A stretch of DNA of 64,000 nucleotides from a candidate division WOR-3 bacterium (GTDB lineage: Bacteria > Hydrothermota > Hydrothermia > B15-G9 > WFZT01). Where the stretch lies: positions 1 to 64,000 of the forward strand of contig JALUEE010000047.1 in the NCBI GenBank assembly GCA_027053075.1, written 5' to 3'. The notes beneath the pieces were generated by a model, which ran no database searches, was not told the origin of the DNA, and saw only the letters and a list, made by a program, of their open reading frames with translations. The first letter of the stretch is position 1; every line of letters starts with the position of its first letter. Position numbers and translations under genes: made by a program. This document shows, in pieces, positions 33,988 through 53,456 of the stretch.

Positions 33988-34807
33988 GTAAAGATTTTAC
34001 AAGCAAAATGTGTCTGAAAGCAAATTACAGATAATTGAGATCAGGGCTCATCAATCTAAGTCGCACTTATTTGTGCAAGTTATTTCTACTCTCTACCATG
34101 CTAAATACTCATTCCAGGGATATGAGCATGAGGTTCTCTCGGGATTATAACATAGACATTCATCTTCTGCTTGCTTGGGTGTAAATCAATAACAACCAGG
34201 AACTTCTCTAAGCATAGTCTCCAGGGAGGTATAGATCGAATCGGAAGACGGGGGAGGATGTCTTATATTTCGCTGATTCTTGCATTTTGGCTTCATGTTC
34301 GCGTTTTGAGCTGTTTCAATACGTCTTTTATGAGTAAAAGGGAATAACACCGTAGGAAGAAATTCTTTAACTTCCTTAATAATTCTCCCGTTTGCGGCCT
34401 GAAAGATGAATCGAAGAGGTTGAAAATTCCCCCATGTTCTGCGCTCATCAGAGTTAGAGCTCTATTTCTGGGTCTTTGTAAACGTCTGGAGGTTCGTATG
34501 TTCCGGGGTCGTCAGAGTTGCCGAGCTTTTCCAGTTGTTTGTCTTGCATGTCGAGAATTTTCTTCTGTTCCCCTGATCGTTGATTATCCTTTTTCCACTT
34601 TCTCTGCAAGCGTTGTCCTGAAAAAAATGGTAATTGGAAAAACTGGTGAGCTCCCTCCCTCGCTTGCGAAGCAAACGGGCTCTTTTACGCTCAGAAACGT
34701 TGGTTGGGATAAGTTAGCGCCCCGCATTTCTCGAAATCTCATTCCGTAGAGGTGTTTGGATAAGTTAGCATTCTTCCCCGCCTGCAAAATAAGTAGGGGA
34801 GCTGCCT

Positions 34808-35043
34808 GAATTAAATCCAGCTCTGCGTCATGAGCACGGGTATTTGTGAGAAAGTGGATTTCTGGGCACTAAGAATTAAATCAAGCTCTGTGACATAAGC
34901 ACCATCCGCGAGAGAAGAGATTACATTCACGACCTTAAAGACAATAGGAATTAAATCCAGCTCTATAACATAGTCACTTAAAAAACAACGCTGAGCTGGT
35001 TTTGAAAGAGCATGAATTAAAATCAGCTCTATAACACAGTCAC
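34808..35043. repeat. CRISPR-like mini-array: four diverged 30-nt repeats with unique 35/45/36-nt spacers
   Basis: Repeats at 34808, 34873, 34948, 35014 (e.g. GAATTAAATCCAGCTCTATAACATAGTCAC). Confidence 0.7.
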
Positions 35044-35502: not shown

Positions 35503-36789
35503 GTTCCGATCCTACCTACGAGGCATGGAAATTATCATCCACCTGAACGTCCCATGAAGCAGAATCAAGTTCCGATCCTACCTACGAGGCATGGAAATGA
35601 AAAATTCGGAATCAATTGCCCTGTAAGTGAATTGTTCCGATCCTACCTACGAGGCATGGAAATATTGGCCTTGTTCCTGCAGAAAACATAAGAGTGTCTT
35701 TGTTCCGATCCTACCTACGAGGCATGGAAATTTGAGATTGAGAAGTAGCCGTCAGTAGTGGAGATAGGTTCCGATCCTACCTACGAGGCATGGAAATTCC
35801 CCATATTCAGCTCGATATAGTTTTTTCAATTCGTTCCGATCCTACCTACGAGGCATGGAAATTACCTCCTTTTATTTTAATTATCCCTAAACCTAACGTT
35901 CCGATCCTACCTACGAGGCATGGAAATGCTTTGACTGATTGAGGTATGTGGAAAGTAAGTAAAGAGTTCCGATCCTACCTACGAGGCATGGAAATTTTTG
36001 TTTATAATCCCTTTCATAACATTTCTCCTCGTTCCGATCCTACCTACGAGGCATGGAAATGCGATCTTCTCAGAGAAATACGGGAACTAAAAGAGGGTTC
36101 CGATCCTACCTACGAGGCATGGAAATGCAAAAGTCCCAGGTAATTGCCCTGGAGAATCCCTTGTTCCGATCCTACCTACGAGGCATGGAAATCTCCGTTG
36201 CCGGCTAATCCGAATGCAAGGGTATTGGTTCCGATCCTACCTACGAGGCATGGAAATTAGATATCGAGAAGATTCTGAGGCTTCCGGTGTATTGTTCCGA
36301 TCCTACCTACGAGGCATGGAAATCATTTCTATTTTCTAACTTGGGTTTCACAAATTTTTCCCGTTCCGATCCTACCTACGAGGCATGGAAATAAACCAAT
36401 ATCACCAAATCCTATATAATCATGACTTTCGTTCCGATCCTACCTACGAGGCATGGAAATGAATAGACTATAAAAGCCCAGCCGTTTTGAGTTGGTGTTC
36501 CGATCCTACCTACGAGGCATGGAAATTATGTTTGGAAACATGAAATAAAATGGTATAAGAGAGTTCCGATCCTACCTACGAGGCATGGAAATCCGGAAGA
36601 CCCAGAAAAGATAAAGGAACTTGATGTAGTTCCGATCCTACCTACGAGGCATGGAAATACGGTTTTATCCACACCGTACACGGAGTTTGACAGGGTTCCG
36701 ATCCTACCTACGAGGCATGGAAACTCCAATCCTCTTTTAAGACAAATACATACGGCAATGTTCCGATCCTACCTACGAGGCAAAAAATT
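35503..36789 (+). CRISPR. CRISPR array, 20 repeats and 19 spacers (35-39 nt)
   Basis: Repeat GTTCCGATCCTACCTACGAGGCATGGAAAT (30 nt); repeat 19 ends GAAAC, repeat 20 (36760) is degenerate at its 3' end. Confidence 0.99.
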
Positions 36790-43171: not shown

Positions 43172-44194
43172 TTAATCAATGACAGGAATATCCATTTCAG
43201 TGACGTCAATTCTCACGAGACTTTTATCACCGGACTGTCTCACATACTCAGCCTGTCTATCTCCCACCACAGCCTCAAGAATCATTGCTGATGATACCAT
43301 CGCGGTCCCACCGGTTATATTAAAACTAATATCGCTATCTTCATAATTTTTGAGATTTTGCAGCAACCTATCTAATTCAATCTTAACGTCTCTGAAATCA
43401 CTGACATCAACAACTCTGGACTTTTCTATGATCAAATCTCCCGTGGTAATTCTTTTTTCGAGATGTGGAATAACCTTCAGAAATTTTTCAAAATCAGCAA
43501 AATGTTCTTTTGCTTTCTCTGATAATATGACAATAACCCCTTCAAGAATGTGATTTTCGTGTATAATTGCTCTCAACGCCGGTGTCCAGTTGCCGGGCAA
43601 GTCTTTTAAAGTTTCCTCTTTAGGTATTGCCGGGTTACCCAGTTGCCGTAATTTTTCTTGAAGAGATTGAATCTGTTCAAAGGGCTCACTGCTGGGCAAA
43701 CTCAGTGCAAAGATAAGAACTTTTCTGGGGAGCGGTTTATCGTGGGCAGGTTTTTCTTTTGGCTCGAACAAACAATTGATGTATAGTAGAGGCAATAAAA
43801 ACAGAAACAAGATTGCCAATATGAATGTCAGAATGTGATGCCAGAGTAAGCCCTTATTGTAATCCGGTGTTAAAACAAGTATCCCTGCATCCCTCACACT
43901 ATCAAATACCCAGGAAATCTGGAATAAAACACTCAGGAAAATCCAGATGGACAGGTATCTATAAATTTTCTTTAACCCTTTTCGCGGTGGCTCTTTTAGA
44001 AAGTTACGAAGGGCATCTGTGAGGCCAATAGATTTGTCCTTATATTTATACATCAAGATGGTTATTGCTGAAATCAAAAGGATAATCAATAAAGTTTGGC
44101 CTAACGCCATAAAGGAGAGTATAAATGGGAAAACGCTTGAAAAGGCCAAAAGTGCAATTATGAACAGTATCTTTAAAAATTCCCTGAAGCTCAA
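43172..44194 (-). CDS. Transmembrane CARF-domain CRISPR effector (Cam1/Cam2-like)
   Basis: About 4 N-terminal TM helices; C-terminal Rossmann-like domain with ISFNITGGTAMVSS; last gene of the cas operon. Confidence 0.75.
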   Translation of the reverse strand: MSFREFLKILFIIALLAFSSVFPFILSFMALGQTLLIILLISAITILMYKYKDKSIGLTDALRNFLKEPPRKGLKKIYRYLSIWIFLSVLFQISWVFDSVRDAGILVLTPDYNKGLLWHHILTFILAILFLFLLPLLYINCLFEPKEKPAHDKPLPRKVLIFALSLPSSEPFEQIQSLQEKLRQLGNPAIPKEETLKDLPGNWTPALRAIIHENHILEGVIVILSEKAKEHFADFEKFLKVIPHLEKRITTGDLIIEKSRVVDVSDFRDVKIELDRLLQNLKNYEDSDISFNITGGTAMVSSAMILEAVVGDRQAEYVRQSGDKSLVRIDVTEMDIPVID

Positions 44195-44196
44195 TT

Positions 44197-44583
44197 TTAT
44201 ATCCTTCTCATTTCTCTGAACTTTTCTCTGATGCTCTGGAGATTTATTATTTCTGCAACCTCAAATTTTGGAGGGGTAGAATTCGGAACCGGCTTCAATC
44301 TCACTACAGGTGGGAAATATCCCATCAAACCATGAAGTGCTGCAAGGAGGGTGACAGCAATAAAATTAAAGGCTGGTGGAACTATTATAATCGGCCGTGT
44401 CTGCCACTCCTCAGGTGTCAGGTTACACGCCTCAATAAGATCTTTCACCTGCTCCTCAAAAGACTTTTCATTATCAAAAAACACTGGAATCTGCCTTATC
44501 TCCTCAATCTCCTCATCTATCAATTTCCTGATCTGCCCCACCTGCTCCTCAGTTAGTGGATGAGAAAAATTAAGCACGAGCAT
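44197..44583 (-). CDS. csx15: CRISPR-associated protein Csx15
   Basis: LNFSHPLT, LHGLMGYFP, EIINLQ motifs. Confidence 0.8.
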   Translation of the reverse strand: MLVLNFSHPLTEEQVGQIRKLIDEEIEEIRQIPVFFDNEKSFEEQVKDLIEACNLTPEEWQTRPIIIVPPAFNFIAVTLLAALHGLMGYFPPVVRLKPVPNSTPPKFEVAEIINLQSIREKFREMRRI

Positions 44584-44717: not shown

Positions 44718-45575
44718 TTATGATTTAATTGGTCGCCATAAACCATTATCCAATATTTCAAAGTAAACATCTTGATCGCTATCCACCTTTGTTCCTGGTT
44801 TCCAAGTCAAGCCTTGTGTATAAATACGCTGTAAGTACCTGCCCTCCAAAACTTCAAAATCTCCTTTAAATTTGAAGTGCGGGTCTGGCATTATATGACC
44901 AAATGCTATATTGGATTTTATGCGTGGATTTGTATGATTCAGTTCCACTTCGTAATCCAAAAAACGAGAAGCTTCCGGATGTTTCACGAGTTCAATATGA
45001 CCAAATCCGTAGCGGGTATCTGCTCCTACCATCAGTTTCTTTATTGAGAAAACTTGGTTTTGAACACTCTCATCGGCAATAAACACATACCCCACCATGA
45101 ACATCTCGGGAGGTGGATAATGGTTACTAATTTGCCAATAAGGTTGAATGCACTCTAATTCGCGAAGTGTCCCTTCCTCAGCACTATCTGATTTGGGATC
45201 AATGGATGTGGAGGGAAACGAATACAGAATTTTTGATTTGAAGTCTCTGTTTGGCTTATCATCATTTGGAGTGTCTTCCCTTTTCCAAACGAGTCCATCA
45301 GAGTATTCTGAATACCACATAGCGTATTCATCGCCAATTTTTTCGGCTGGGAACAGATAGGAAAATCGGACATTTTGTAGCAAATTTTCACCAATCGAAA
45401 TATAATCCGGGAAACTACTTCCTGCCGTATCCCGTGATAACTCGGCTGTTAATGCTCCCCAAATTGTCCTTGCTGGTATGTATAAGCGGGTTCTGTTCAA
45501 AATTCCTGCTGGTGCCGTGCCGATATTTATGGGTGATTTTACCTTCCAGACCCATCGGAACATCTTCCATGCCAT
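44718..45575 (-). CDS. cmr3: Type III-C RAMP Cmr3 (Cas5 group)
   Basis: SPINIG, YIPARTIWGALT, GADTRYGFG; position after cmr5. Confidence 0.75.
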   Translation of the reverse strand: MAWKMFRWVWKVKSPINIGTAPAGILNRTRLYIPARTIWGALTAELSRDTAGSSFPDYISIGENLLQNVRFSYLFPAEKIGDEYAMWYSEYSDGLVWKREDTPNDDKPNRDFKSKILYSFPSTSIDPKSDSAEEGTLRELECIQPYWQISNHYPPPEMFMVGYVFIADESVQNQVFSIKKLMVGADTRYGFGHIELVKHPEASRFLDYEVELNHTNPRIKSNIAFGHIMPDPHFKFKGDFEVLEGRYLQRIYTQGLTWKPGTKVDSDQDVYFEILDNGLWRPIKS

Positions 45576-45581
45576 AATTTC

Positions 45582-45950
45582 TCACCCCTGTTTGGCCTTC
45601 AAGTGATAACGAGCATACGAGAATGCGGTGCGTAGAAGGTCTCGAGCAAAAAGTAAATCATCTAAATCTTTGGAGTTTGCTAAGAGCTTTATTGCTTCCA
45701 AAATATCGTCCGTAGTATCCAAGCGATTTCCGAAAATGGTCTTGAGAAATTGCAGAGATTCCGATCTAACCTCTTTAGCTACATTGTTATTCTTGGCCTT
45801 GAGATATAGAAACATCGCATACGGGCCTTGCTCTTCCAAAACAGTCAAGGCCTCGTTGACAAGATTTTCATCTATGCCAGAAATCTGGGCTATCTCACGG
45901 CCCAATTCGGCACACTGAATGTCCAAATTTTTCATTTGAGCTTCACTCAC
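45582..45950 (-). CDS. cmr5: Type III small subunit Cmr5 (Cas11)
   Basis: Helical, ALTVLEEQGPYAMFLYL, YARYHLKA; GTG start with GGAGG. Confidence 0.75.
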   Translation of the reverse strand: MSEAQMKNLDIQCAELGREIAQISGIDENLVNEALTVLEEQGPYAMFLYLKAKNNNVAKEVRSESLQFLKTIFGNRLDTTDDILEAIKLLANSKDLDDLLFARDLLRTAFSYARYHLKAKQG

Positions 45951-45978
45951 GGCTTTCCTCCTCGTTTGGTTCAGAGGC

Positions 45979-47010
45979 CTATGACGGATTAGATTGTCTC
46001 TGAGCGGGTTCAACGCAATCAATATCTTGGGTTCCGGGCGATTCATTCTCATGCACAACTTCTACGCGTCCCATGCCTCGAGTGCCCATGCCGCCGATGC
46101 CCAAGTGTTTGAGATAGGGGTGAGCCTGGTGGGTTACCTCATGCACCCTTTCTGGAGAATACATTCGCTGACCACCATCCAGAATGACGCCTATCTCCTG
46201 TCCACCTATTCTAAAATGCTGAGGATTCTTTGCGATAATTTCCCACACCAGGACCGTGGATCGAGGCAGGGCTTCGTAAGAGAAGAGAGCCCTTTCTTCG
46301 GCAGCACCAGTTTCGGGATTGATGGAAACCGAGGTGCGCACTTCCAAATTGCTGTTGACGATGTGGGCGAAGAGGCGGTCAGGCACCAAAGCAAGGCGGT
46401 TTTGGATGTAATCTGGGATACCCAGGCCTTGCAATTTAGTTTTAATATCATTCATTTGGGCACACGCTTGCACAGGCAGCAATAACCAACCCAAGTTAAG
46501 AGGGTTGCCCGAGTTTGATTCAAGGTAAACGGCATTTTCCTCCACCCCCTGCACATTCAAACCTATAAAACGCAAGGTCTGAGGTGCAGTCACCCACATG
46601 GGGCCTTGACGGGTAGCGACAGGGAAGAGCAGCAAATGGACATCAGTAAAGGCGGCCAAGCCTGCAAAACCGCCTTCCTGCCCTGCACCACGGGCGAAAC
46701 CAAAGACAGTGCAAACGGGACAGTCAGGTTGGCGACAATGCCCATGATCCGCATCCAGCCCTAACCCGGCGCAATCGGGGTAAAAAGGTTTATCTCGGTT
46801 CGGAAATTGTGCTGTCCGATTTTCTTCAAAATACATCGCCACATAGGCCCGATACACTCCAGCTAAGCTGGACCCAGGAATTTTAGGCACCTGGGTGACC
46901 GGGTCGCGCACAATAGTCAAATCTACCCGACCGATGCGGGTCCCACCGGTGCCCACATGAATAGGGTCCAGAGCCAGACCAACCTGCAAGAATTTTTTGT
47001 AACTAGACAT
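45979..47010 (-). CDS. cmr4: Type III RAMP Cmr4 (Cas7)
   Basis: DPIHVGTGG, VDLTIVRD (catalytic Asp), IPGSSLAG, GGMGTRGMG. Confidence 0.9.
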   Translation of the reverse strand: MSSYKKFLQVGLALDPIHVGTGGTRIGRVDLTIVRDPVTQVPKIPGSSLAGVYRAYVAMYFEENRTAQFPNRDKPFYPDCAGLGLDADHGHCRQPDCPVCTVFGFARGAGQEGGFAGLAAFTDVHLLLFPVATRQGPMWVTAPQTLRFIGLNVQGVEENAVYLESNSGNPLNLGWLLLPVQACAQMNDIKTKLQGLGIPDYIQNRLALVPDRLFAHIVNSNLEVRTSVSINPETGAAEERALFSYEALPRSTVLVWEIIAKNPQHFRIGGQEIGVILDGGQRMYSPERVHEVTHQAHPYLKHLGIGGMGTRGMGRVEVVHENESPGTQDIDCVEPAQRQSNPS

Positions 47011-47023
47011 TATTTACCTCCTT

Positions 47024-50000
47024 TCAAACATTTTCTTTAAGGACTATTGTATGCCAATCTATCGCCCATTGGAGTAATCTCTGTTGGGCAGAGTCTATGA
47101 GGGTTTCAAGTGCTGTGCCCCTGACCTCTAAATGGTGCACAAGCATGGCACGGAGAGTATCTTCCCACAAATCTTTTGAAACGGCTCGTTGCCCCTCGGG
47201 TGTTTGCCATTCCTTTTCCAAACGCCCAAGTTCTGTTCTAAATCTCTGAAGAGCCGTTTGGCTTGGGACAACTTTCTTTAATAGGTTCCATATTTCGCGC
47301 ATTTGCTCCCAATCTTCCAAGTAATGTAAATCTGGGTTAGAGAAGCGAGCGGAGGTGCTTCCCATGAAGAGGATGGTTACACGCGCTGTGGATACTTTTA
47401 CACCATCACCTGGACGAAGGTCCGATACATGACGGTAAACACGGCCATCCTTTGGATGGCGAAAATCTCGGGGAAAACGAAGTTGTCGATCCTCAATTAC
47501 CATGTAAGGATAGAACACATCATCTCGCCCATCAGGCATAGCAGTAGGCACTATCTTTAAGATGCTCTTGCCGTCTTCCAGTTTTAAGCGGAGGACTACC
47601 ACACCTGCTTGTCGTTCCACTTCTTCCACCTGCCATGTTTCCTCCTCTCCTTTCAGTTCTTCTTCCATTTTACGTGTTGCTCCGATCACGGCCTGATAGG
47701 GCAACATTCGAGGGAATGCGACCACGCCTATCCGTAAAGGAAGCCGATCCCACACGCGGGAGAAGTGTTCCTTCCACCAGGAAACAGCTATATCCACACA
47801 TTCGGAGGCCGCTTCCAATGGCACCAGCACCCGAAAACGAAGTGGAGAGACTTCTACCGGAATGACCGGGTGATACAAGCTCAAGTGCGCATGAGGCTGA
47901 CGCAGCTCATTCACATGGGTAACAGTCATAGGACGCTCCTGACCAAAGGTATCTTCTTCTTCCAGCCTAATTTGAGCACCCTGAAAGGAACTCGATTGCT
48001 CTTCTGGCCGTAGCAATCTACCCAGATTGGAAGCCGTCACAAAACCTCCCAGGCTACGCACATAGACCAGGCTAATCTGCCGACCTTCCCAACGGCCATT
48101 GTAAAGGGTCAGGTCTCGCCAATCGTTATTGTCGTCTGGAACCAACACCAAGCGTCGGACACGCCAGCAATTTTCGCTGCGAGCCGCTATCTGCCGAAAT
48201 TCCTTCAGCAAGTCATGGAAGAACTCCTCGGCCTCCCGCCAGAAGCGATAGACACGGCCAGGTGAGGGAAGCTTGCGGAAGAGTTGATGCGCAAGCCAAG
48301 CAGCTCGCTGGTCGTCATTCAAGATACCCCATGTAGGTGCATCGGTACGATCCTCTACAATTTTACGGAAAAAAGTTGGCCAGTCATTTTCATACTTGTA
48401 ACCCTCTTGAAGGTTGGCAAGCAATTGGTCGTTTTTATCGAATTTAAAATGCTGTGGATTTTGTGGATCGCGAAACCTTTGTTTTAGCTCGTCAATCAGC
48501 TTATCCATAGAGCCTGTGGGGGCAATAGGATTAGGTTGACCTGAAAGGACCAGGTTAAATCTCACCCACTCCGGTATTGCTTGTACCCGCAGGCTATCCA
48601 CACGGCTGCCATTGAGCCAATCTTCAAGGTCCAGTGAGAATGTTAGCAAAGCCAGGCGGCCGTTGCGGTCAGCCACCTCCTCGAACCAGATGGTGTCGTA
48701 ATCCAGTTGCCCCTGAAGCCATGCATCTCTTCGATGGTGGCGCCGCTCGCGGCATACCGCGCATGGCTTACCCTTGTTGGTGGGATCACCGTTTAGTCGC
48801 ACACGGCAGACGGGACACACATGACCACGCGTCTCTGAAGGAGCCCTCCAATGAACATCCCACTGCTTGTGAACAGGGACGGCCACTACCAGCTTGGACT
48901 CTTTAAGCTCCCTAACAATGGGTACCAATGAACGGGTCGGCTTACTCAGGCGCACAAAGGGCGGGGTTTCCAGTTCCAGATTACGGGCGATTTCTTCTAC
49001 TTGATCTTGGAGCCATCCATTCCATCCTCGGAGCCGGGATGCGAAGTTCTCTTCATCAAACTCAAAATTCGGATCTCTCCGTCTTTGACGTTCCTGTTCT
49101 TCTTCATCGAATCTCTCGCCGGGAAAAGAAAACACGGCCATGCTGCTGTCTCGATAAAGCAAAGAGCCTGCAGCAATGTCCACCTCCACCAATTCAGCTA
49201 CACGACGGAAAAATTCGTCAATGGCACCTTGAGCACCTGTCCAGTCACCAATTTTTACCGCGCGGGCTTCGTAGTGCTCGGTCCCAAGGGCGATAGTGAG
49301 CAGGCGCCAGCGGGTATTGCTTTTGGTAAAATTATTGATAGCCAATTTCTCATCTTTCGATAGGTCATCGAAGGACTTCTCTTTTCCTTTCTTTGTTCTA
49401 AGGTTTATACCCAATTTGGTAGCTATGCTCTTCCAGTTCCAAGGAAAACCCTTATCGAGCAACGCCCCAGCCACCGCGCTCTTAAATAGAGCCGCAGCCA
49501 CATAGGACTGGTCCCACAAGGTAACATCGTTGTTGGGCAAACGCGTCTCGGCTAAGGTGGACATAAAAGCTCTTCGGACAAAAGATTTTTCTCCGATAGC
49601 TCTATTCCGCCAGTCTTGCCAATGAGCTACATCTGACACACCTCTGGTTCCTAAGTCCCGCAACTCCTCCAAAACTCGCCGGATTTCTCCCACCAATTGC
49701 TGCCAGCCCTGTGGAGTCAATAGTTCAGGTGGATTGGCCAGCAGGTTACGCTTTGGGTGGCCCCAAGGTGAGGAAAGCCACATGTGAGGAATGGTTTGCT
49801 TAAGATAATCTGAGGTAGAAGTAGGAAGGTTTTTCTCGACGCCAGAGACAATACCATGTCCTGCTTGGAGTAATCCCAAAAGACCAGGGTTACGTCCTGC
49901 ATGTTGTTCAATAAACGTAGAAAAAGAACCTGGCCATGCATTATTGGGTATTCCACTCCCGTATAGCCGTTTTACCCATTCTAATAAGGTATCCCATGGA

Positions 50001-50182
50001 AAAGGTGGCGTTTCCAAATCATGCCAATGTCGTTCATCGTAGCCGTTGTTCTCGCCACCATGACGGCGTAAAAATTCAATTCGTGCCTTTCCAGCCATGT
50101 GAAACCACCCAATGGCCTCCATTGCTAAGAGTAAAGGGCGATGTTGCCGTAAAGTCTCAGCCGGTGAGAAAGTGCTGCTCAT
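47024..50182 (-). CDS. cas10: Type III-C large subunit Cas10 (Csx11-like)
   Basis: ETRLPNNDVTLWDQSY, CPVC...CAVC, KLPSPGRVYRFW; HMAGK where HD is expected and no GGDD; start ATG 50182. Confidence 0.85.
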   Translation of the reverse strand: MSSTFSPAETLRQHRPLLLAMEAIGWFHMAGKARIEFLRRHGGENNGYDERHWHDLETPPFPWDTLLEWVKRLYGSGIPNNAWPGSFSTFIEQHAGRNPGLLGLLQAGHGIVSGVEKNLPTSTSDYLKQTIPHMWLSSPWGHPKRNLLANPPELLTPQGWQQLVGEIRRVLEELRDLGTRGVSDVAHWQDWRNRAIGEKSFVRRAFMSTLAETRLPNNDVTLWDQSYVAAALFKSAVAGALLDKGFPWNWKSIATKLGINLRTKKGKEKSFDDLSKDEKLAINNFTKSNTRWRLLTIALGTEHYEARAVKIGDWTGAQGAIDEFFRRVAELVEVDIAAGSLLYRDSSMAVFSFPGERFDEEEQERQRRRDPNFEFDEENFASRLRGWNGWLQDQVEEIARNLELETPPFVRLSKPTRSLVPIVRELKESKLVVAVPVHKQWDVHWRAPSETRGHVCPVCRVRLNGDPTNKGKPCAVCRERRHHRRDAWLQGQLDYDTIWFEEVADRNGRLALLTFSLDLEDWLNGSRVDSLRVQAIPEWVRFNLVLSGQPNPIAPTGSMDKLIDELKQRFRDPQNPQHFKFDKNDQLLANLQEGYKYENDWPTFFRKIVEDRTDAPTWGILNDDQRAAWLAHQLFRKLPSPGRVYRFWREAEEFFHDLLKEFRQIAARSENCWRVRRLVLVPDDNNDWRDLTLYNGRWEGRQISLVYVRSLGGFVTASNLGRLLRPEEQSSSFQGAQIRLEEEDTFGQERPMTVTHVNELRQPHAHLSLYHPVIPVEVSPLRFRVLVPLEAASECVDIAVSWWKEHFSRVWDRLPLRIGVVAFPRMLPYQAVIGATRKMEEELKGEEETWQVEEVERQAGVVVLRLKLEDGKSILKIVPTAMPDGRDDVFYPYMVIEDRQLRFPRDFRHPKDGRVYRHVSDLRPGDGVKVSTARVTILFMGSTSARFSNPDLHYLEDWEQMREIWNLLKKVVPSQTALQRFRTELGRLEKEWQTPEGQRAVSKDLWEDTLRAMLVHHLEVRGTALETLIDSAQQRLLQWAIDWHTIVLKENV

Positions 50183-51198
50183 GGCGTACCTCCTTTGGTT
50201 AGCCAGTTTTGAACTTCCTGCCAGAGTTCGTCGCGAGTATCCTTTTCCACGCTGCCATGAGTTTTGTGGAAAGCGCGCCACTTTTTGATTTCCGCTGTGC
50301 CCCAGCCCACAGTGCGCTTGGCGGAGATCCCATAGGGAGTAAGCAAAGTTTCAATAGCTTCAAGCAGTTTTGGGAGTACATCCACAGGTTTTGCCTCTGG
50401 CTCCATACCGGGCCAGGGCGCGTAAAGTAATGAAAGTGTTCCTTCGGCTCCCTCAACTTCCTCTCTTTCTTGGGTTCCATCAGACTTTTTCTTCACCTGT
50501 ATCGTCCGTCCAGGAACCACTTCATAGTAAATAGGTTGGGTGCCAGCGCGATTGGTACGACTATGTGGGTTGATGACCTCGAAGCCGATCTTGTTGAACC
50601 ACGTGGGGTAGAAGACCAGAGCGCCCTGGTGGAAGTTTTTCTCTTCCTTCTTCTCGTTACCAAAGAGATGCTGAATCCAGTCCGGATCCCACCAGCCATC
50701 TATTTTGCCATTGTGTTGTTCCAGATATTCCATCAGTCCTTCGTGCATTCTACAGGCCCATCGCAGCATGCCTTTACAAGAGGAAGCCGCCATAAATGGC
50801 ACGCCAAAGACCCGGTCTTTACGCACAGGGTTGTCCATCACATGGAAAATTCGGTCATCACGGGAATACCAGGGAGTGAGTAGTTCAAAATCCACCTGAA
50901 GAGCAAGCCAACGATCAGATAATAGCGTGGAAAAGTCAATTTGTAGTCCTGGATACAACTTGACCGGGAATCTCCGAGGCACTTTTCCCATGTATTCCTT
51001 ACGGAGCCTCGTTTTCTCCCGCTCCGCCTGACGTTTTCCCTGTCTGTCATTTGTCTTTTCCGCTTCTAATCGCTTGATTTCAGTCTTCAAGAAGCATTTG
51101 AAAATATGATCGATAAAACCTCCGGCCAGCCTCCAAGCCACCGGAGTGTTTTCCAATGGTTCGCAAGTCTCAAGAAAGATGAAGTAATCCCAAGTCAT
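50179..51198 (-). CDS. cmr6: Type III-C RAMP Cmr6
   Basis: LLTPWYSRDD, KGMLR, LVFYPT, EVINPH, YGISAKRTVGWG. Confidence 0.85.
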   Translation of the reverse strand: MTWDYFIFLETCEPLENTPVAWRLAGGFIDHIFKCFLKTEIKRLEAEKTNDRQGKRQAEREKTRLRKEYMGKVPRRFPVKLYPGLQIDFSTLLSDRWLALQVDFELLTPWYSRDDRIFHVMDNPVRKDRVFGVPFMAASSCKGMLRWACRMHEGLMEYLEQHNGKIDGWWDPDWIQHLFGNEKKEEKNFHQGALVFYPTWFNKIGFEVINPHSRTNRAGTQPIYYEVVPGRTIQVKKKSDGTQEREEVEGAEGTLSLLYAPWPGMEPEAKPVDVLPKLLEAIETLLTPYGISAKRTVGWGTAEIKKWRAFHKTHGSVEKDTRDELWQEVQNWLTKGGTP

Positions 51199-52421
51199 GA
51201 ATTTTCCTCCTGTTTGAACAATCGTTCCATAATTTGCTCTCCTGTAATGAAATCCTCATTCGGATTAAAGTCCTGCCAAATTTGCCCCAAGCGGCGCTTC
51301 ATTTCTTCAAAATCCACTAAACCCGGCTTCACAAAGCCAAAGGTGCGGCGTGCTTCTTCTGGATGTTCGAAACTGAACACTTTTTTGCTTACCTGTTGAC
51401 TACCCGCAAGCCAGTGATTAACCTCGTTATCTCGCCAGAAGTTCTGCGCTTGGTTCTTCCGCATATTCCTTCCAATGACAAGATTATATGTACTTTTGGT
51501 GAACGATTGCCTTGCCAGATACCGTCCTTTCACGAACCAGAAGTTTTGCAACGAGGCCCAGGCAAAATCTTGGTCGTTAAAGCTCTTTCGCCACCGTTCC
51601 TGTTTTACATATGCTTCTGCTTGCTGCAGAGTGCAGCCAACTCCTTGAGGCCGCTCCTCAACCGTGATGAGCCCGAAATCCTGATGGTGTCTCTTTCCGG
51701 CCCAAGCATTGATCTCCCGAGTTTCATTGTCCCTTCGCACTTTGATTTTGAGAGGTTCACCATGCGGTTTTCCACTAAGGAGGTTTTCAAGGTCAAGAAG
51801 ACGAGTCACCAATGTGCTATCAACTTCCAGGATTACATCGCCTTCTTGTAACTGGAGCCCCCGCCGACTGTGTCGCACTTTTATCTGCCCGCTTGAATCG
51901 TCCAGATCATCGGCGCCAAGATCAGCGATTCCCCATTCATCTGACGGCTTGAACACCGTTTTCCCACCCAAGGCCCCGTATTCGGCAATAAGGTGGATGG
52001 TTGCATCCAGCAGACACCATTCTTCTGGATGAATAGGTCGCAAAGGGATGAAGCGTAGGATAAAAATATTACTCCCGTTGTCGTCATTATCTACCTTGAT
52101 CTGATTTTGGATGACCTTTTTTCCATATTTGTCCACCACCATAAGCCGGAACTTGCGTGCCCAACCAGTGCAACCGAAAAGTTCACAAACCACGCAATGG
52201 TGGCCAGGTTCATGTGGCTGTTTGTTAGGAGCTGGGCAACGAATTTCCGACGCCGTCGGGTCACAAGCCTTCCCACCCAATCCTCGAACTAACACCTCGA
52301 ACCACCAGCGAAGTGAACCCATTATACCGGTCAAGATCGTTCTTTCCCCACGCCTTGAAGCATCCCCTGTGAATATCGGGGTTAGCGCTTTTAACTTCCA
52401 TTCCTCCCATTCTTTACTCAT
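51195..52421 (-). CDS. cmr1: Type III-C RAMP Cmr1 with PDZ-like insertion
   Basis: LTPIFTG, GSLRWWFE, CELFGCTGW, YGALGGK. Confidence 0.85.
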   Translation of the reverse strand: MSKEWEEWKLKALTPIFTGDASRRGERTILTGIMGSLRWWFEVLVRGLGGKACDPTASEIRCPAPNKQPHEPGHHCVVCELFGCTGWARKFRLMVVDKYGKKVIQNQIKVDNDDNGSNIFILRFIPLRPIHPEEWCLLDATIHLIAEYGALGGKTVFKPSDEWGIADLGADDLDDSSGQIKVRHSRRGLQLQEGDVILEVDSTLVTRLLDLENLLSGKPHGEPLKIKVRRDNETREINAWAGKRHHQDFGLITVEERPQGVGCTLQQAEAYVKQERWRKSFNDQDFAWASLQNFWFVKGRYLARQSFTKSTYNLVIGRNMRKNQAQNFWRDNEVNHWLAGSQQVSKKVFSFEHPEEARRTFGFVKPGLVDFEEMKRRLGQIWQDFNPNEDFITGEQIMERLFKQEENS

Positions 52422-52543: not shown

Positions 52544-52660
52544 GAACCAGAATCTCATTGCGCCTCTTATCGAGGCGGGGCGGAGTTCGGGCTCACCCTC
52601 TGGGTCAGCTCCGCCCATAAACATTGGGGTTAAGACTTTTAGTTTGAAGGTGGTTTTCAT
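52544..52660 (-). pseudogene. cmr1: Truncated III-B-like cmr1 (first ~39 codons)
   Basis: MKTTFKLKVLTPMFMGGAD...ELRPASIRGAMRFWF, then similarity is lost; own RBS. Confidence 0.85.
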
Positions 52661-52697: not shown

Positions 52698-53456
52698 TTA
52701 ATCCTTATTTCTCACCACTTCGATCATGCCGAAGCCCTGGCTGTTTTTGGCTCCCAGGCCCGCATTGTAAGCAAGCATAAACCAGGGCTCGGGCAGGCTT
52801 AATTCATATATTCCTACCCAACCCTTAACAATGACGCCTTTAAACTTCGTTATTATCTCGTTGTGCTTCTTAACCTTTACGGGCTTTATATACCCCTCAA
52901 TTGGTGGGATGTCGTTTTTGGAGAAGTAAGCTTTGGCCTTGCGACGGAGGTTATCAAAGATCAATTCTTCAAATTCTTTCTCGAAGGGACTAAAGTAATA
53001 GGTCTTTCTCTGTCCATCGGACGTGTATAAAGTTCGATAAACTGTTATCGGAGAGATTGCTTTAATTTTCATAGGTCCCGAGAGTTTGAAAGGTCTCTCA
53101 ACCTCAATTGATACGAGATTGCATTTAGCTGAGCCGATTCTTACCACCCCTTCCTTAACCAGTGTAGCTGCGAAAGATTCGAGAATCTCAATATCAACAG
53201 ATGAAATCTTAAACCAAACTCGCCCCTCAAAAATCAGCTTTTTGCTTATCGGATCATACCTTCTATTTTCACCGAAGAGTCTTGAGAAGGTGTATAACTT
53301 GAATCTTCTCTTTCCAAATTGGTAGCCTTCATCATGTACCCATTCAGCGAGCTTCTCTTTGATGTTGTTGAGGATAAAACTCTGGATGATGTGGTTGTAA
53401 TTGACGGAGATTCTAAGGATTCCGTTCTCTGGCTCAAATTTTACAATTAATCTCAA
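52698..53456 (-). CDS. cas6: CRISPR endoribonuclease Cas6
   Basis: YNHIIQ, HDEG, FKLYTFSRL, GLGAKNSQGFG. Confidence 0.95.
   Translation of the reverse strand: MRLIVKFEPENGILRISVNYNHIIQSFILNNIKEKLAEWVHDEGYQFGKRRFKLYTFSRLFGENRRYDPISKKLIFEGRVWFKISSVDIEILESFAATLVKEGVVRIGSAKCNLVSIEVERPFKLSGPMKIKAISPITVYRTLYTSDGQRKTYYFSPFEKEFEELIFDNLRRKAKAYFSKNDIPPIEGYIKPVKVKKHNEIITKFKGVIVKGWVGIYELSLPEPWFMLAYNAGLGAKNSQGFGMIEVVRNKD

Follow-up and report, generated by a model that had tools for sequence, protein, structure and literature searches.

A PDZ-like domain in place of a short loop in some Cmr1 alleles of CRISPR-Cas subtype III-C

The Cmr1 protein encoded by a subtype III-C locus of a candidate division WOR-3 bacterium carries a PDZ-like domain inside its glycine-rich loop, where other alleles of the same gene have a short loop of fixed length. 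We favour, with a probability of about one half, the view that this insert is an optional appendage, which would sit rigidly on the face of the effector complex where the guide 3' end lies, and not a receptor for the C-terminus of a dedicated partner. The locus lies in a stretch of 64,000 nucleotides (contig JALUEE010000047.1 of assembly GCA_027053075.1), which we call the window. The features of the gene that matter for the argument are the following.

51195..52421, minus strand: cmr1, a gene for a Cas7-family RAMP protein of 408 aa (TIGR01894, 59.6 bits for a cut-off of 28.65; VIA Z 12.7 to the Cmr1 structure 4l6u)
51927..51950, minus strand: K158-I165, which fits the carboxylate-loop pattern R/K-xxx-x-hydrophobic-G-hydrophobic (sequence; motif definition from passages of PMC2891790)
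51957..51977, minus strand: N-side of the glycine-rich loop of Cmr1 (G149-T155), a conserved flank
51690..51935, minus strand: PDZ-like insert, Cmr1 residues W163-R244, a reduced and circularly permuted PDZ of HtrA type (Pfam PDZ_2, models, fold searches, allele alignment)
51672..51689, minus strand: C-side of the glycine-rich loop (H245-G250), likewise a conserved flank, followed by the strand that ends the first RAMP domain

The insert lies between GGKT and HHxDFG, within the glycine-rich loop, a part of Cmr1 that has a role in guide binding, and it takes the place of a fixed 9-residue loop. A first-pass annotation, made from the sequence alone, had placed a PDZ-like domain at 51696-51935. 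These positions correspond to W163-G242, in frame within the 408-residue open reading frame translated from the minus strand, and the motifs and flanks that it gave (KPSDE and KRHHQDFG, after YGALGGK) agree with the sequence. The difference between long and short alleles extends a little further, to R244 (51690), i.e. it covers residues 163-244 (82 residues), while K158-E162, which insert-free alleles have too, are part of the host loop. One contig, from a run that is possibly the source sample, spans 50900-51980 with both junctions and 0 differences, and the C-side junction is also bridged by a contig of a second study, with 21 differences. The insertion is real and the assembly is sound.

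The surrounding locus contains the following genes and elements.

35503..36789, no strand assigned: CRISPR array of 20 repeats (the last degenerate), with spacers of 35-39 nt
43172..44194, minus strand: membrane-plus-CARF effector gene (PADLOC CARF_2M, E 1e-23)
44197..44583, minus strand: csx15 (NF040560, over the cut-off)
44718..45575, minus strand: cmr3 (PADLOC Cmr3, E 7e-73)
45582..46058, minus strand: cmr5 of III-C type, translation of which probably begins near codon 42 (PADLOC III-C small subunit, residues 42-157)
45979..47010, minus strand: cmr4 (TIGR02580, over the cut-off)
47024..50281, minus strand: cas10 of subtype III-C (Csx11), likely start M34, with a free C-terminal valine (TIGR02682, 285 bits for a cut-off of 249; PADLOC Cas10c, E 6e-115)
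50179..51198, minus strand: cmr6 (PADLOC Cmr6, E 2e-62)
52544..52660, minus strand: what is left of a second and more distant cmr1 (about 39 codons of its 5' part), located between cas6 and the III-C cmr1
52698..53456, minus strand: cas6 (TIGR01877, over the cut-off)

The order of the genes is thus cas6, cmr1-cmr6-cas10c-cmr4-cmr5-cmr3, then csx15 and the membrane-CARF gene. This is a CRISPR-Cas locus of subtype III-C: the large subunit, the cassette and the missing cyclase motif all fit. Neither GGDD nor GDD is found in the Cas10 sequence, and the genome (95% complete) has no match to the Cmr2 or Cas10 palm-2/cyclase family. At the place of the HD motif, Cas10c has H61-M62, which is kept in at least 90% of 60 homologues together with many other invariant polar residues. 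The absence of a cyclase motif agrees with passages of PMC11229360 that describe III-C loci without cyclase sites and known effectors. The usual III-C effector module (Cas10c/Csx11, TIGR02682) has the same gene order, the same six family matches and no cyclase motif; the present one differs from it by the 82-residue domain that stands for the short loop of Cmr1, by the lack of a canonical HD motif, and by the csx15 and membrane-CARF genes that follow.

Judging from the 39-codon cmr1 remnant, the III-C cassette probably took the place of an older type III operon, of which csx15 and the CARF gene would be leftovers. These two genes may now be orphaned, or there may be a signal source of a kind that we do not recognise. 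The contigs of two runs diverge from 52544 onward. Elsewhere in the genome, a second and divergent cmr4-cmr5-cmr3 fragment fills a 2.2-kb contig (C99, 1-2236), contig C57 ends in another array, whose repeat is nearly the same as that of the first, and cas1 is found on contig C30. Within the window, a 36-nt repeat unrelated to that of the array occurs four times, spaced by 65-75 nt, upstream of the array (34802-35043), and short palindromic intergenic repeats of several families (D3, D4, D6, D13, D15, D17) are dispersed between 3666 and 58667. The spacers match no target in the genome or in related loci.

The resemblance of the insert to PDZ is not due to chance, since Pfam PDZ_2 (PF13180) scores 32.6 bits on the whole protein (E 9.7e-8) and 36.7 bits on the segment, for a cut-off of 27. 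The part that can be recognised from sequence is the C-terminal half of the domain (positions 29-77 of 80 in the Pfam model, columns 34-85 of 89 in hhalign). An AlphaFold2 model of Cmr1, based on an alignment of 90 rows, has a mean pLDDT of 91.2 and a pTM of 0.90, with pLDDT of 95-98 over residues 161-240 and of 71 in the ten residues before. By VIA, residues 163-245 match the PDZ of DegS (4rqy) with Z 10.3 and rmsd 2.4 over 78 residues, and the second kind of match obtained with the Cmr1 chain is to Cmr1 structures, 4l6u being the best (Z 12.7). Modelled alone, the insert has a pLDDT of 90.8, and among 48,161 chains searched it matches PDZ domains of the HtrA family (Rv0983, Deg1) with Z 9.6. 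In the ESM Atlas the top scores, which include PDZ families, are at most 0.78 and serve as leads only. Profile and fold comparisons of the kind proposed with the first-pass annotation recover an HtrA-type PDZ (97% against HtrA-type PDZ in hhalign, TM 0.75 in Foldseek, Z about 10 to DegS/DegP), and the predicted models contain a PDZ beta-sandwich with permuted topology. We therefore predict, on the basis of models and profiles, that the insert is a PDZ by ancestry and by fold.

A profile made from 24 inserts retrieves 48 proteins of the Cmr1 family at E <=1e-26, and then, from 5e-10 downward in strength, 61 non-Cmr1 PDZ proteins, the majority of them Do/HtrA proteases. This search reveals no recent donor, and the domain would have originated from an HtrA/DegP-like gene. 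With the PDZ of HtrA, DegP and DegS (PF13180) it has in common the permuted topology (Z 9-10, rmsd 2-3), but the Cmr1 insert is cytoplasmic, is not attached to a protease and has both ends in a loop; moreover, its betaB, helical linker and alphaA are reduced, and its C-terminal half alone can be aligned. Public databases already attach PF13180 to many Cmr1 homologues. Full-text searches, mostly of openly accessible papers, gave no description of a PDZ in a Cas7-family subunit; supplementary domain tables of CRISPR classification papers might list the fusion; in the relevant passages of PMC4605624 and PMC10028731, PDZ refers to proteases, and PMC11090510 applies the name III-C to a different system.

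If the PDZ were a working receptor for a hydrophobic C-terminal peptide, from the host, a virus or Cas10, it would provide a III-C complex devoid of messengers with an input or output by protein contact. We consider this somewhat unlikely, but a serious rival to our preferred reading. It is true that K158-P-S-D-E-W-G-I165 conforms to the carboxylate-loop pattern R/K-xxx-G-hydrophobic-G-hydrophobic, with a variable first Gly, as given in passages of PMC2891790 and PMC11642142, and that the last three positions of the loop fit in 38 of 58 non-redundant inserts; this intact-looking motif in the insert of the window argues for a receptor and against our preferred reading. However, Pro occupies the first hydrophobic place in 18 of the 58, and the rest of the ligand-binding half has changed as well. 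In the HMMER alignment, A166-D167-L168 falls on the ADL of an HtrA PDZ, which leaves betaB, the ligand strand, with two residues fewer than in the HtrA set: from the LG-hydrophobic motif to the acidic residue of the D/E-L pair there are four residues in HtrA (11 regex matches) versus two in the insert. Five residues are likewise missing, by comparison with HtrA, from the alphaA-bearing segment, which runs from the following strand to GDxI. In both models, residues 165-174 form isolated bridges and a 3-residue helix and residues 183-195 are coil, so that a full betaB and a helix alphaA lining the groove are absent. The structural aligner begins with W163 on DegS residue 257, in a register that is possibly shifted; with DegS numbering, which we take to be ungapped here, Ala and Asp would fall on the last two positions of the loop and break it.

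The pattern of conservation also speaks against the receptor. Positions 208 and 212 of the long helix, which by PDZ anatomy presumably face the peptide groove, are variable (L22/K14/I11/V6 and E29/R15/K10, respectively; n=58). The conserved residues that are specific to the insert (D167 in 54/58, L168 in 51/58, R186 in 49/58, H220 in 52/58, W240 in 57/58, K243 in 58/58 and R244 in 54/58) cluster at, or beside, the two chain ends. A conserved peptide ligand of the insert is thus doubtful. Direct binding of RNA is not indicated either, as the inserts have a median net charge of -1 and are not basic as a whole.

The first-pass annotation had also suggested that the domain is a docking site recruiting a partner to the complex, by a route that would bypass second messengers. 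The premises of this suggestion hold: the fold is that of a PDZ, such a domain is not standard in III-C Cmr1, and Cas10 lacks both GGDD and a canonical HD motif, so that an output other than a messenger would make sense. What is missing is the partner. No gene family tracks the insert when 31 insert-bearing loci (the window and near-duplicates included) are compared with 76 insert-free loci, and no non-core family is common to more than a few of the insert-bearing ones. The set of six core genes is the same with or without the insert, and close insert-free cassettes have the same six. The neighbours of III-C loci are housekeeping genes, SNF2 helicases, methyltransferases and cas1/cas4; at L107 (5910-19576), L098 (6968-10342), L109 (2417-9318) and many insert-free loci, cassettes lie between genes for an SNF2 helicase, a DUF1156 protein or another methyltransferase. 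In a single case (L084, 362-2728), a TPR-CHAT protease gene is found just downstream of an insert-bearing cassette, with a cas3 gene and further RAMP genes upstream. HtrA and RseP, which are the remaining PDZ proteins of the genome, are encoded on other contigs.

Within the cassette, Cas10 is the only protein with a hydrophobic C-terminus. It ends in a free Val or Leu in 8/8 complete cases beside inserts of the Trp/short-junction group (window, L098, L085, L088, L084, L126, L001, L109), as a receptor for Cas10 would have it. We nevertheless rejected the C-terminal Val of Cas10 as a PDZ ligand: the same ending is present in four of five insert-free clade mates (L016, L006, L011 and L019, not L012), and Cas10 has a non-hydrophobic end beside inserts of the Pro type. 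This terminal residue looks structural, because many distant Cas10 proteins have longer tails in which the corresponding residue is hydrophobic; overlap of the genes does not account for the Val. Residues associated with the insert in partner subunits gave strong p-values, but these are confounded by clade, and we discarded them. For covariation within Cmr1, we assessed 7 of the top 25 rows; among these, only residue 247, which adjoins the insert, passed the independent-pairs test, so that we see no distant co-adapted docking surface on the core.

Alignment with other III-C Cmr1 proteins, which the first-pass annotation had called for, confirms the insertion and reveals two discrete alleles. 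Among the 120 best homologues, 58 have the insert (query included) and 62 the short loop. The insert is nonetheless a minority allele, since it is present, whole or partial, in only 5 of the best 150 representatives at 50% identity, and in 4 of 80 loci kept from 433 relatives in GTDB. The expectation that RAMP subunits normally carry no PDZ is borne out for III-C Cmr1, most distant relatives being insert-free. In a larger set of 231 proteins, KPx and HH are separated by exactly 9 residues in 135 of 150 insert-free ones, and the fifth of the nine is Arg in 126 of these 135; the inserts are 81-97 residues long, mostly 84-85 (for 14 of 81 the pattern gave no length). Metagenomes scanned with a motif yielded 47 loci, i.e. 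26 with an insert-bearing cmr1 and 21 without cmr1. Named carriers are Rhodothermus profundi (P0017), Brockia lithotrophica (P0032), Thermanaeromonas, Bellilinea and a Methanomethyliaceae archaeon, and Thermus thermophilus has the short loop. In the phylum of the host, 22 of 272 genomes have a match, with a full-length score solely in the genome of the window; one of them (G089) has a two-piece match around the insert site, plus a stop. A plasmid search gave three records, none of which covers the insert.

How did the two alleles come to be distributed in this way? In a core tree computed without the insert (227 rows, 78 insert-bearing), the insert label requires 42 changes, 22 of them forced by well-supported branches, as compared with 64.8 after shuffling. 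The distribution is clustered, yet the carriers do not form a single clade; monophyly of insert-bearing cmr1 was rejected (AU p 2.5e-11, with 40 rows picked as sister pairs once the larger tree was known). The gene is a mosaic throughout. P0019 and P0070, for example, are 99% identical in their N-part and 52% in their C-part, and for 51 non-redundant carriers the trees of the N-part, insert and C-part have 3-9 of 48 splits in common, about half of the strong splits being in conflict. The insert label changes 47 times on the N-part tree (ratio 0.65, with a median of 0.59 for ordinary residue states and 20/55 controls as high), and 41 times on the C-part tree (ratio 0.51, the same as the median, with 14/27 controls as high); this control is rough, as ordinary substitutions may recur by mutation too. 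No dedicated mobility is shown, because the scatter of the insert is no greater than the general recombination of the gene.

This result bears on two alternatives. The first is that the insert is a self-mobile or excisable element, similar to an intein, an intron or a transposon, or else a chimera of the assembly. The fixed site in a conserved motif and the scattered distribution might suggest an element of this kind, and so might base composition: in 24 of 25 loci the four-fold sites of the insert are poorer in GC than those of the N-part (mean 0.45 vs 0.70). They are also below those of the C-part (0.56) in 20 of 25, but variable parts of the C-half of Cmr1 are low in GC as well, and the value may reflect either foreign origin or a lesser recombination-linked gain of GC. 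Besides the scatter, which does not exceed that of controls, the junction DNA of 25 alleles contains neither a target duplication nor a terminal repeat, and no splicing or nuclease domain appears in the Pfam search. We tried to derive the short allele from the long one by in-frame deletion or frameshift and rejected this, since the residues of the short loop differ. The sole internal deletion that we saw, in the cmr1-cmr3-like fusion P0122, leaves a different loop, which indicates that short alleles are not fresh deletions. A chimera is contradicted by the presence of the insert in the named isolates Rhodothermus profundi and Brockia lithotrophica and by the contigs that bridge the junctions. 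The element and the chimera are both very improbable, and this alternative can be regarded as largely refuted.

The second alternative is that of a near-neutral passenger: a surface loop that tolerates change would have received the insert a single time, and both alleles would drift in a recombining gene pool; the insert would be kept folded because partial deletions harm Cmr1, and could be removed only by recombination with a short allele. A scatter equal to that of ordinary residue states on the N-part and C-part trees is what such a passenger predicts, and insert-free cassettes are indeed in the majority. The loop tolerates other changes of length (a duplication in L049, an extension in L031). 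The insert is under purifying selection, with a median dN/dS of 0.24 against 0.29 and 0.23 for its flanks (35 unsaturated pairs of 298, many within one cluster of relatives), but this is expected of any folded insert. Against a passenger, D167, R186, H220, W240 and K243, which are not scaffold residues, are near-invariant across inserts whose mean identity is 47%, and the alleles occur side by side at 22 or more well-supported places of the tree, which is easier to understand if each is sometimes favoured, although drift in large populations could do the same. We find the passenger rather unlikely, even if all measurements are also compatible with a folded passenger. Changes inside the PDZ insert are also seen: a 13-residue in-frame tandem duplication is tolerated in L091 (1101-1406), L092 (9847-10152) and L120 (999-1304), and L085 has an arginine-rich repeat expansion.

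The optional appendage that we favour would go back to one ancient event in which the domain was captured from an HtrA/DegP-like gene; afterwards, ordinary homologous recombination in the conserved flanks would have exchanged long alleles for short ones and the reverse. The confident prediction of the whole chain (pTM 0.90 for a chain of which one fifth is insert) points to a fixed placement of the insert on the RAMP core. By analogy with III-B structures, it would stand at the 3' end of the guide, and its role could be steric: it may shield the junction of Cmr1, Cmr6 and guide from nucleases or viral inhibitors, or stiffen this junction. In III-B, according to passages of PMC7192623, Cmr1 and Cmr6 touch the 3' end of the guide. 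Cmr1 structures of this subtype (4l6u, 4w8x, 9l7c chain A, 6s6b chain J) have the same two-domain RAMP fold (Z 10.9-12.7), but only 13-18% identity; the top rows align 215-241 of the 408 residues, and the insert aligns to PDZ chains instead.

Extra domains have been described in other Cas7-family subunits at the guide 3' end. Passages of PMC11026444 report a large, positively charged Cas7-insertion in III-Dv, which holds the 3' seed, and a large insertion in the III-E protein Cas7-11, which is dispensable, its truncation having no effect on activity. The Cmr1 insert is comparable in position, but it is a small PDZ of near-zero net charge that is present in some alleles only, and no homologue of either of these insertions is among the VIA structural matches listed. 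A precedent for a 3'-terminal subunit that docks host proteins is Csm5 of type III-A, which has no PDZ and, according to passages of PMC10289348, recruits PNPase and RNase R; for the insert there is no evidence of nuclease recruitment.

A bolder idea, unlikely in our view, is that the PDZ is a swappable sensor or adaptor which binds viral or host C-termini at the guide 3' end, or shields a target of viral inhibitors there, and that the two alleles are a balanced polymorphism from an ancient arms race, in a type III effector that would have lost both known outputs of Cas10. If true, this would mean an input from a protein ligand within a backbone subunit of CRISPR, and would give a handle on the action of III-C. 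In passages of PMC11229360 and PMC7192623, III-C is an untested subtype whose output is not known.

The graft of a widespread module of signalling type into the III-C backbone was unexpected. Since near-identical cassettes with and without the domain are natural matched controls, a swap of the loop would test the role of the domain directly and would also probe the function of III-C; these controls include cultured hosts, Rhodothermus profundi and Brockia lithotrophica with the insert and Thermus thermophilus with the short loop. Should the insert bind peptides, it would be a new input to CRISPR effectors, and even if it is passive, its site is a natural and tolerated place for fusing a domain onto a type III complex.
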